This document shows, piece by piece, positions 1 to 2,967 of a stretch of DNA of 64,000 nt. The position numbers and the translations under genes were made by a program. Below the pieces are notes generated by a model. The model was given only the letters and a program-made list of their open reading frames with translations. It ran no database searches and had not been told where the DNA came from. Source of the stretch: a virus (lineage: Duplodnaviria > Caudoviricetes); IMG/VR virus record IMGVR_UViG_3300037851_001309, positions 1 through 64,000 of that record. One strand, given 5' to 3'. Numbering within the stretch: the first letter of the stretch is position 1; each line of letters starts with the position of its first letter.

Positions 1-2967
1 AATCCCAGTAGTTCCCTGGATGCCCGTTTCTCCCTGGATGCCGGTGTTACCCCGAATTCCAGTAGTACCTTGTATTCCGGTCTCTCCTTGAATGCCTGTT
101 TGCCCTTGGATCCCAGTGGTTCCTTGGATTCCTGTTTCTCCTTGGATCCCGGTCACTCCCTGTATTCCGGTCTGGCCCTGAATACCAGTGGTACCTTGGA
201 TTCCGGTGGTACCTTGAATTCCTGTATTCCCCTGAATTCCAGTTTCACCTTGGATCCCAGTAGTTCCCTGAATTCCAGTTTCTCCTTGAATTCCCTGAAT
301 CCCAGTTTGACCTTGAATGCCTGTTGTACCTTGAATTCCGGTCTGGCCCTGAATGCCTGTAGTACCTTGGATTCCCGTAGCCCCCTGAATACCTGTATTG
401 CCCTGAACCCCGGTTTCACCTTGAATCCCAGTATTCCCTTGAATCCCAGTTTCTCCACGTACCCCAGTTGTCCCCTGAATACCCGTTAAGCCTCTGATGC
501 CTGTCACACCCTGATCTCCCTTAGGGCCCTCTTCACCCATAACACCAGTCTGGCCTTGGATGCCGGTGTTCCCTTGGATTCCTGTCTCACCCTGAATACC
601 AGTATCTCCCTGAATCCCTTGAATACCAGTATCTCCCTGGATCCCTGTATTCCCTTGGATCCCAGTATCTCCCTGTATTCCTGTTTCACCACGGACTCCA
701 GTGGATCCCTGTATTCCGGTTTTTCCCTGTATTCCAGTCTCTCCTCTAACTCCGGTAGTGCCTTGAATTCCGGTAGTGCCTTGAATTCCGGTAGTGCCTT
801 GAATTCCGGTATCACCCTGAATACCTTGAATTCCGGTATCACCCTGAATACCTTGAATTCCAGTATTTCCCTGGATGCCAGTATTTCCCTGGATGCCAGT
901 TTCTCCCTGTATGCCTGTGTTACCTTGGATGCCTGTATTTCCCTGAACCCCTGTGGTCCCTTGGATGCCAGTCTGACCCTGAATACCAGTCTGACCCTGA
1001 ATACCAGTAGTGCCCTGCATCCCGGTTTCTCCACGGACACCTGTTTGACCTTGGATTCCAGTTTCTCCGCGGACTCCGGTAGTACCCTGAATCCCAGTCT
1101 GTCCTTGAATCCCAGTGGTTCCCTGAATTCCGGTATCACCCTGAATGCCAGTTTCTCCTTGGATACCAGTCTGACCTTGAATCCCAGTTTGTCCCTGTAT
1201 GCCTGTGGCCCCTTGTACCCCTGTCTGGCCTTGAATACCGGTGTTGCCCTGGATACCAGTCTGACCTTGTATGCCAGTCTGACCCTGAATTCCCGTCTGT
1301 CCTTGAATCCCAGTTTCCCCTTGAATGCCGGTGTTTCCTTGGATCCCTGTTTGGCCTTGAATTCCTGTGGTCCCTTGGATACCAGTTTCCCCACGAACAC
1401 CTGTTGTACCTTGAATCCCGGTCTCTCCCTGAACCCCTTGAATTCCAGTATTCCCCTGAATCCCAGTTTGACCTTGTACTCCAGTCTGTCCCTGAATTCC
1501 TGTGTTTCCTTGGATTCCAGTCTGGCCTTGTACTCCAGTCTGTCCCTGGATTCCAGTTTCTCCCTGTATTCCAGTGGTGCCTTGAATTCCAGTTTCACCT
1601 CGAACTCCGGTTACCCCTTGTATGCCAGTATTTCCTTGGATTCCTGTGGTTCCCTGAACCCCTGTAGTTCCTTGGATACCAGTAGTCCCTTGGATCCCCG
1701 TTTCACCTCTAACCCCAGTTTGACCCTGAATACCGGTTTCACCTTGGATACCGGTTACCCCCTGAATCCCGGTTTCTCCTTGGATCCCTTGTATTCCAGT
1801 ATCACCCTGAATACCAGTAGTCCCTTGAATTCCTGTCTGCCCCTGTATACCGGTTACCCCCTGAATCCCAGTCTGTCCTTGAATCCCGGTGGTCCCTTGT
1901 ATCCCAGTCTGACCCTGAATGCCTGTTTCCCCTCGAACTCCGGTTTCTCCCTGAATCCCCGTCTCACCACGGATACCTGTGGTCCCCTGAATACCAGTCT
2001 GACCTTGAATCCCAGTCTGACCTTGAATCCCAGTCTGACCTTGAATCCCAGTCTGACCTTGAATCCCAGTCTGACCTTGAATCCCAGTGGTTCCTTGAAC
2101 ACCAGTCTGACCTTGAATCCCGGTTTGGCCTTGTATTCCTGTTACACCCTGAATCCCGGTCTGACCCTGAATGCCCGTATTTCCCTGGATGCCCGTCTGA
2201 CCCTGGATCCCGGTTTCTCCTTGGATTCCTGTGCCTCCCTGAATCCCTGTAGCACCTTGTGTCCCTGTAAACCCAACAGGTCCTGTCTGACCCTGGATCC
2301 CGGTTTCTCCTTGGATTCCTATGCCTCCCTGAATCCCTGTAGCACCTTGTGTCCCTGTAAACCCAACAGGTCCTGTCTGACCCTGGACACCAGTATTTCC
2401 AACATATCCGGTAGCACCCTGAATTCCAGTTGCCCCATAAACACCAGTACTGCCCTGCATTCCTGTATAGCCTTGAGATCCGGTTATACCCTGAATCCCG
2501 GTTATACCTTTTTTTCCAATATATCGATATCCAGAAATTTTGAAAGGTTTGGTAAAAGATGTGGTGCTTCCATTAAAAATCAGAATACCTGTCTGATAAT
2601 TGAAGTACCAATTGCAAGCATCCGTGGGGAAAATCTCTGTACCATTATTTTGGTATAAATGGATAGCATAACCAGCCCCGTACTTATCGCTAATCCAATC
2701 ATGAAGACGGGATCCTGACTCATAGGCATAATAGCACTGCTGGCTTCCAACCGAAGTGTCTTCGGTCATCACAAACATCGTGCGTTGTTCCGCTACACCT
2801 TGGGACACAGCTTGAGCAGGGTCATTCGGAAGACCATCTGTCCACAAATGGTCAAGATGTGCGTTAAAGCTGTCATCCCCGAACTCTTCGTAAAAAGCCT
2901 TACCGGAAGAGGTAACCCTCTTATTTAGTAAGGTTTTGAATGATAGATCTTCTTTTGACCAAGACAT
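1..2967 (-). CDS. Giant collagen-like fibre protein, 3'-truncated by window edge (>=989 aa; not in ORF track)
   Basis: Translated by hand. GGAG RBS then ATG at 2967 gives [30 protein letters not shown]...FKISGYRYI (~150-aa globular domain), followed by G-X-Q-G-X-T repeats from 2517 to base 1 with no stop. The + strand ORFs 70..489 and 556..2658 are its exact antisense frame. Confidence 0.92.
751..858. repeat. Intragenic tandem repeats: 18 bp x3 then 27 bp x2
   Basis: tccggtagtgccttgaat x3 (751-804) and tccggtatcaccctgaataccttgaat x2 (805-858), inside the collagen coding region. Confidence 0.9.
1994..2088. repeat. Perfect 18-bp tandem repeat x5 (encodes GIQGQT)
   Basis: ccagtctgaccttgaatc repeated 5 times (1994-2083) plus a partial unit. 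Confidence 0.95.
2195..2387. repeat. 90-bp tandem duplication with one mismatch
   Basis: 2195-2284 and 2285-2374 are identical except g/a at 2231/2321. A partial third unit runs to 2387. Confidence 0.9.

Follow-up and report, generated by a model that had tools for sequence, protein, structure and literature searches.

A proline-poor collagen-like gene at the end of a phage contig probably encodes the subunit of a very long virion fibre

We describe a gene, here called ORF A (ORF, open reading frame), that fills the first 2,967 nucleotides (nt) of a 64,000-nt stretch of DNA from a tailed virus (Duplodnaviria; Caudoviricetes; positions 1 to 64,000 of IMG/VR record IMGVR_UViG_3300037851_001309), referred to below as the window. 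ORF A joins a 150-residue N-terminal domain directly to a collagen-like rod that is still open where the DNA ends, and we consider it likely that its product is the subunit of a homotrimeric collagen-like fibre on the virion of an uncultured, very large freshwater phage. The product is best understood as a long thin filament of the virion because the collagen part matches phage tail fibre families, the N-terminal domain is of a modular adaptor type, the gene lies in a conserved fibre cluster and a three-chain model of its N-terminal part associates.

Reading frame and collagen-like rod

The features of ORF A, all on the minus strand, are as follows.

1..2967, minus strand: ORF A, partial fibre gene of 989 codons, its 3' end cut off by the contig end
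2518..2967, minus strand: A-type anchor domain, N-terminal residues 1–150, N-terminal helices and a beta-sandwich
1..2517, minus strand: collagen-like rod, 279 complete Gly-X-Y triplets and a partial 280th, in G-(I/V)-(Q/R)-G-x-T hexads
2974..2977, minus strand: Shine–Dalgarno sequence GGAG, with a 6-nt spacer to the ATG at 2967, inside the 12-nt gap behind the stop codon of the preceding gene, ORF B

Translation of the minus-strand frame from 2967 to 1 gives 989 codons without a stop. The frame is absent from the ORF list unless open ends are allowed, in which case it is listed as 3'-open, and the competing ORFs that cover 1–2700 on both strands (556..2658 on the plus strand, 504..1598 on the minus strand, and others) are shadows of the repeat. 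The start is credible because the ATG at 2967 follows GGAG at a 6-nt spacing and lies 12 nt past the ORF B stop.

Glycine occupies every third residue at 280 consecutive positions (residues 151–988, counted by script) with no break of register; the collagen begins at residue 151 (nt 2517) and the final glycine codon is nt 6–4, which leaves 279 full triplets and two residues of the 280th. The Pfam Collagen family (PF01391) scores 442.1 bits against a gathering cut-off of 27.2. Proline accounts for 3 of the 839 rod residues. The X positions are led by isoleucine (115 triplets), then glutamine, threonine, glutamate and valine, and the Y positions by threonine (134) and glutamine (124), with 12 arginines. 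G-x-Q and G-x-T triplets alternate in 258 of 278 neighbouring pairs, and the repeat unit is therefore a hexapeptide, G-(I/V)-(Q/R)-G-x-T. At ~0.286 nm per residue, the 839 residues would span at least ~240 nm. The initial annotation of this DNA, made from its letters alone, had proposed a frame that starts at 2967, runs without an in-frame stop to the edge and is masked in the ORF list by off-frame and antisense shadows, with ~279 Gly triplets in one register from 2517, a proline-poor G-X-Q-G-X-T unit and a length of at least ~240 nm; translation and script bear it out on all of these points.

In relatives (loci L049, L010 and L021, the L numbers denoting IMG/VR loci) the collagen is broken regularly by a stereotyped one-residue deletion, G-x-T-G-A-G-I-Q-G. 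This deletion occurs nowhere in the 280 triplets of ORF A, which suggests a rod that is stiffer, or under different selection, than the interrupted collagens of its relatives.

Base 1 of the window is base 1 of a single linear contig of 75,804 nt, so the C-terminus of ORF A is missing from the record. No terminal repeat or circular junction was found on this contig, and the collagen does not resume at its far end, which codes for an unrelated actin-like protein. That gene, for an actin-like ATPase (L001:14757-15776, minus strand; contig 74757-75776), lies beside virion genes and has no PHROG match. An exact look-up of ORF B on other contigs returned a single 3.7-kilobase (kb) Logan contig, broken ~50 residues into the collagen. 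With a CheckV completeness of 16%, the 75,804-nt IMG/VR virus contig implies, as a rough estimate, a source genome of several hundred kb.

Evidence at the DNA level that the repeat is genuine

Two short stretches of the rod, both on the minus strand, stand out at the DNA level.

1993..2105, minus strand: most repetitive stretch, near-perfect 18-nt tandem units coding GIQGQT
2195..2387, minus strand: recent 90-nt (30-residue) duplication within the rod, 99% identical, from Tandem Repeats Finder

The units of the rod are only ~67–70% identical in DNA; the longest exact repeat is 77 nt (offsets 1993 and 2011), and no 99-mer recurs. The 109 GIQ triplets are spread over 22 of 24 possible codon combinations, and copies of the same hexapeptide, compared in pairs, differ at 3.44 of their 18 nt, virtually all of them third codon positions (~57% of third positions). 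Near-saturated synonymous divergence under a fixed peptide means that the repeat is old and has been kept by selection on the protein. The young parts of the rod are confined to the two stretches listed above, and a miscount of units by short-read assembly is conceivable at 1993–2105 only.

These results bear on the question of whether the long rod is an artefact, its units miscounted or misjoined within a repeat that exceeds short reads. The contig does terminate inside the repeat, and an independent Logan assembly (k=31) of the one run in which the stretch occurs covers the rod only in short pieces and breaks early in the collagen, as in the contig that carries ORF B. Expansion by the assembler or recent slippage is nevertheless improbable, because neither yields near-saturated synonymous divergence. 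Of the sampled 31-mers, 89% are present in a single freshwater metagenome run that is probably the source sample, and the listed short contigs of this run match without differences, although none bridges the rod; the run is available as k-mer contigs only, so that uncovered bins are not evidence, and its support is incomplete and lacks independence. Positions 1062 and 1337 are joined in one Logan contig, with four letters between, a net change of −270 nt (30 triplets) that stays in frame; with a depth of 6.4 and just 21 letters on its shorter side, this weak joint reflects either a k-mer shortcut or a population variant of shorter length. Two other Logan joints (138–392 and 142–2138) are out of frame or carry foreign letters, and we took them as cross-matches between collagen genes. 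Finally, three other viral contigs, from other assemblies, carry a closed ORF whose 294 triplets, alike in chemistry, run unbroken; rods of such length therefore do assemble fully. Taken with the low identity between units, we regard an artefactual rod as very improbable.

The A-type anchor domain

Residues 1–150 are 36–74% identical to the N-termini of 44 metagenomic proteins (E 1e-68 to 1e-12). What follows this domain varies among them: short or interrupted collagen, beta-helix (PF05048, PF13229), BNR, leucine-rich repeat (LRR) or YadA-like modules. The A-type anchor is thus a conserved adaptor with exchangeable distal parts, the usual design of fibres and tailspikes. Its homologues are located on phage-like contigs of 262–590 kb. 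In alignment A1 (31 sequences, 42–75% identity to ORF A) residues K11, E28, V73, K95, Y100, T126, G127, L129, P141 and Y149 are invariant. An anchor-query scan of viral contigs returned nothing, which was a miss of its pattern method, since the collagen-query scan then found anchor-bearing loci.

No Pfam family was found for residues 1–150, and their sole PHROG match is phrog_9417, of unknown function (E 8e-6). An AlphaFold2 model of the anchor, with a predicted local distance difference test (pLDDT) score of 81.9, consists of a pair of helices and a beta-sandwich. The predicted fold matches uncharacterised proteins of the jumbo phages Atu_ph07 (two proteins), CcrColossus and PTm1 (E 5e-7 to 1e-4). 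In the ESM Atlas the anchor falls among viral hypothetical clusters, with YomF_N (0.87) as a lead only.

The closest architectural comparison is with the A-anchor proteins of L046 (2234 amino acids, aa) and L021/22/66 (4452 aa) and with proteins P0007 (LRR) and P0014 (beta-helix), whose N-terminal domains are 59–67% identical to that of ORF A and whose genes take the same position, after a gene of the ORF B type. Unlike ORF A, in which an unbroken rod abuts the anchor, these proteins have collagen that is absent or interrupted. Throughout the rest of the A-anchor family the longest unbroken run is 90 triplets, since one-residue breaks or inserted globular parts interrupt most of the collagen; ORF A is a length outlier within its family. 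The 4452-aa protein (L021:5516-18870, plus strand; also in L022 and L066) carries dozens of ~45-residue repeats (CYGNGLFVAV...MTSPDG.TWT); these propeller-like repeats flank 367 collagen triplets and form an extreme distal module on an A-type anchor.

Triple helix and trimer

A three-copy model of residues 1–210 (the anchor and 20 triplets) reached an ipSAE of 0.89, whereas the best of three controls stayed at 0.00; the model runs had at least 93% of their contacts in common, and partner pLDDT was at least 84. The predicted interface comprises residues ~160–210 of all three chains and the N-terminal helices, with the anchor forming the base. When this tool was calibrated, 20 of 30 solved pairs passed its mark, as did 1 of 23 single chains. 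The model supports trimerization of ORF A; part of the pass may reflect likeness, because collagen helices are well represented among solved structures.

The [RK]-G-[ED] motif occurs 11 times in the rod, against 4.3 +/- 1.5 in shuffles of the T-type triplets (none of 2000 shuffles reached 11), and an arginine or lysine at Y is followed by Gly-Glu or Gly-Asp in 11 of 14 cases. A basic residue at Y followed by glycine and an acidic residue stabilizes collagen helices through interchain ion pairs, as host–guest peptides have established. Considering this enrichment, together with the strict glycine period over 839 residues and the intertwining of the three modelled chains over residues 160–210, we infer that the Gly-X-Y region would form a collagen triple helix. 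An extended or disordered structure of another kind might be thought of for a sequence nearly free of proline, whose chemistry has to our knowledge had no physical study, but we find this improbable. Stable helices that depend on hydration networks have been reported for bacterial collagens rich in threonine and glutamine and devoid of hydroxyproline (PMC8968730), which further argues against a non-helical rod.

The fibre-gene cluster

Upstream of ORF A lie two further fibre genes.

2980..5235, minus strand: ORF B, 751 aa, the fibre gene next upstream; a B-type anchor, then 29 triplets, then a globular C-terminal domain of 516 aa
5254..10473, minus strand: ORF C, 1739 aa, the first of the fibre genes; four units of bead plus collagen, then a long stretch of interrupted collagen, then a head at the C-terminus

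ORF A is the third and last of three coupled collagen fibre genes in the order C, B, A. The B-type anchor of ORF B (148 residues) has no sequence relation to the anchor of ORF A. This gene order is conserved: a gene with an ORF-B-type C-terminal domain (54–60% identical) directly precedes the A-anchor gene in L004, L021/22/66 and L046, whose anchors are 63–67% identical to that of ORF A. Similarly, the ORF C head is 50–56% identical to heads in related viral loci, and ORF-C-type heads precede B-anchor genes in L009/10 and L013/14/18.

The fibre ORF of L013, L014 and L018 (1149 aa), from a related fibre cluster, shares with ORF A a proline-free repeat, G-(L/I)-Q-G-x-T, and its 294 unbroken triplets start directly after a 148-residue anchor. 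It differs in bearing a B-type anchor (57% identical to that of ORF B) and in being complete, an anchor–rod–head protein with a head of 119 aa. Across the complete relatives the heads measure 119–233 aa and belong to no Pfam family, and no Pfam family was found on the heads of ORF B, ORF C, L014 and L026.

ORF C itself resembles beads on a string, with four homologous globular units of ~130 aa split by GPT-rich collagen; its downstream part has ~200 triplets with frequent one-residue breaks and then a 209-aa head.

Role and placement of the fibre

The best PHROG matches of ORF A (6320, E 3e-232; 5073, E 6e-169; 1806, E 4e-101) are all collagen-type tail fibre families, matched by the collagen repeat only. 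We suggest that the 150-residue N-terminal domain would trimerize and dock the fibre on the tail or baseplate, or on a neighbouring fibre protein, and that the unbroken Gly-X-Y triplets, at least 280 in number, would coil into a triple helix free of proline and no shorter than ~240 nm. This helix may be stabilized by hydration of threonine and glutamine, by the beta-branched isoleucine and valine, and by interchain salt bridges of the Arg-Gly-Glu type. A distal head, lost at the contig end, may bind the host surface, in which case the rod would be a long flexible spacer, giving the fibre a wider radius of capture for a first, reversible contact.

Several points weigh against this proposal. We know of no collagen helix with 0.4% proline and isoleucine at 41% of X positions that has been physically characterised to date. 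The presence of the ORF A product on the virion is a prediction from sequence and gene content; the C-terminal head lies beyond the contig end, and its receptor binding is deduced from relatives only. The fibre genes stand ~17 kb from the baseplate genes, past the replication module. A fold search of the PDB with the anchor gave nothing at E <= 0.001, and its best Z scores of 5–6 (top 5.9), to beta-sandwich domains of baseplate, neck and tail proteins, are in the chance range, for which reason we assigned no PDB fold to the anchor.

Where on the virion such a fibre would sit is a separate matter. The initial annotation had proposed a very long flexible filament or whisker; the long, proline-poor, collagen-like phage filament stands as the best reading, while whisker and tail or baseplate fibre are both still candidates for its placement. 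If it is a whisker or hair, a sub-case of the virion fibre, it would stand on the capsid, neck or sheath of a hairy jumbo phage and serve for loose adhesion or for particle spacing. Whiskers and hairs are long thin appendages of very large myoviruses: Atu_ph07 reportedly bears long thin whiskers, mainly associated with the capsid, and phage vB_PcaM_CBB has tail hairs measured at ~119 nm, half the minimum length deduced for ORF A. In the papers on both phages the gene products of whiskers and hairs are stated as unknown. The best fold matches of the anchor, to two proteins of the hairy Atu_ph07 and to proteins of CcrColossus and PTm1, and the separation of the fibre cluster from the baseplate genes are in keeping with a whisker. 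However, nothing connects the matched Atu_ph07 proteins with whiskers, the same anchor also bears beta-helix and BNR modules, as tailspikes with receptor-binding or depolymerase function typically do, and the PHROG matches, though made through the collagen part only, are to tail fibre families. We hold a whisker to be possible but rather unlikely; the tailspike-type modules found on the same anchor would speak for a receptor-binding tail fibre or branched fibre. That the collagen proteins with A-type and B-type anchors are the long-sought whisker gene products of some jumbo phages, with ORF A as a self-standing proline-free helix of at least 240 nm, is a bolder idea that we offer as doubtful speculation. 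Were the whisker placement true, isoleucine, glutamine, threonine and Arg–Glu pairs would constitute a collagen chemistry not yet studied, and the length of the rod could be tuned by gain or loss of 18-nt units.

A placement off the virion altogether, on the surface of the infected host or secreted from it, much like a collagen-like adhesin, might be considered given that bacteria have such adhesins and that the longest similar runs seen here (317 and 377 triplets) lie in bacterial chromosomal contexts. Yet the N-terminus of ORF A has no hydrophobic stretch resembling a signal peptide, the anchor family resides in viral clusters and on phage contigs, and ORF A is translationally coupled to fibre genes; we give this explanation hardly any credence.

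Length of the rod compared with other collagens

Although ORF A exceeds the other members of its anchor family, the length of its rod is not unique across databases, and in this respect the exceptional length implied by the initial annotation does not hold. A search of 1.84 billion representatives gave 2,433 matches at E <= 1e-30. Among the best 146 new matches, three have at least 280 unbroken triplets (377, 337 and 317) and seven have at least 200, and the median is 65; those of 377 and 317 triplets are the proteins in bacterial chromosomal contexts mentioned above. In IMG/VR, 9 of 78 loci found with the rod have at least 200 triplets, including 476 (L042, still open), 294 (the complete ORF described above) and 273. 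A tblastn search of deposited phages with the rod gave no match, which carries no weight because this query is masked as low-complexity sequence. The rods of L011 and L026 are the most similar to that of ORF A, yet these contigs share no other gene with ours and are therefore not informative on its missing part.

Characterised collagen-like fibres of phages and prophages have tens of triplets. The phage collagen-like tail fibres of PHROG 6320, 5073, 1806 and 30509 resemble ORF A at E 3e-232 to ~1e-101, but none of these families has its A-type anchor, and its rod is far longer and unbroken. The EPclA-type proteins of Escherichia coli O157:H7 prophages (PMC3368898) are likewise phage-encoded Gly-X-Y proteins with threonine or glutamine at Y and a terminal non-collagen domain. 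Among cellular proteins, BclA of the Bacillus exosporium and Scl1/Scl2 of Streptococcus pyogenes share with ORF A a threonine-rich collagen free of hydroxyproline, and form surface filaments with a globular trimerising head; they are much shorter, and in them proline is common at X, against ~1% (3 of 280) here. In bacterial collagens threonine predominates at Y and proline makes up 19–31% of X (PMC8968730). Collagens of Trichodesmium erythraeum and of white spot syndrome virus are also intron-free, with hundreds of unbroken triplets (PMC2443231), but they are not phage fibres, and no flanking domains common to them and ORF A were found here.

By these comparisons ORF A is not a one-off: it adds another member to a class of giant collagen-like phage fibres that is recurrent. 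Such very long proline-free collagen rods of large uncultured phages are numerous in databases and unstudied, and we found no physical or structural study of rods of this kind in phages in the literature. If the rod folds as predicted, a triple helix of vertebrate collagen length would be built from a simple hexad, G-(I/V)-(Q/R)-G-x-T, with neither proline nor hydroxyproline, which would be relevant to collagen biophysics and to recombinant collagen materials. Moreover, two swappable anchors and a conserved gene order may offer a handle for annotating the fibre genes of huge phages and for finding the whisker genes of jumbo phages.

Other genes of the contig

The remaining contig holds replication genes and large tail and baseplate-like genes, all on one strand, and its DNA polymerase is at most 32% identical to that of any deposited phage. 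A core 8-mer was considered as a promoter motif (6 copies against 2.4 expected, a number reached in 2 of 100 shuffles; two copies are upstream of ORF C) and was left unused, the enrichment being too weak. The replication region includes an AAA+ ATPase (15523-17124, minus strand; phrog_8638, E 9e-91). In the replication module a family 2 glycosyltransferase (GT2; 17726-18430, minus strand; PF00535, E 3e-8) lies ~15 kb from the threonine-rich collagen genes; by analogy with BclA its product could glycosylate threonine at Y, though no link was seen here. In the tail region a 1333-aa protein (36814-40815, minus strand) has a propeller of the BNR/Ycf48 type (PF14870, E 2.5e-27), and a stretch related to it is also present in L004, L046 and L054.

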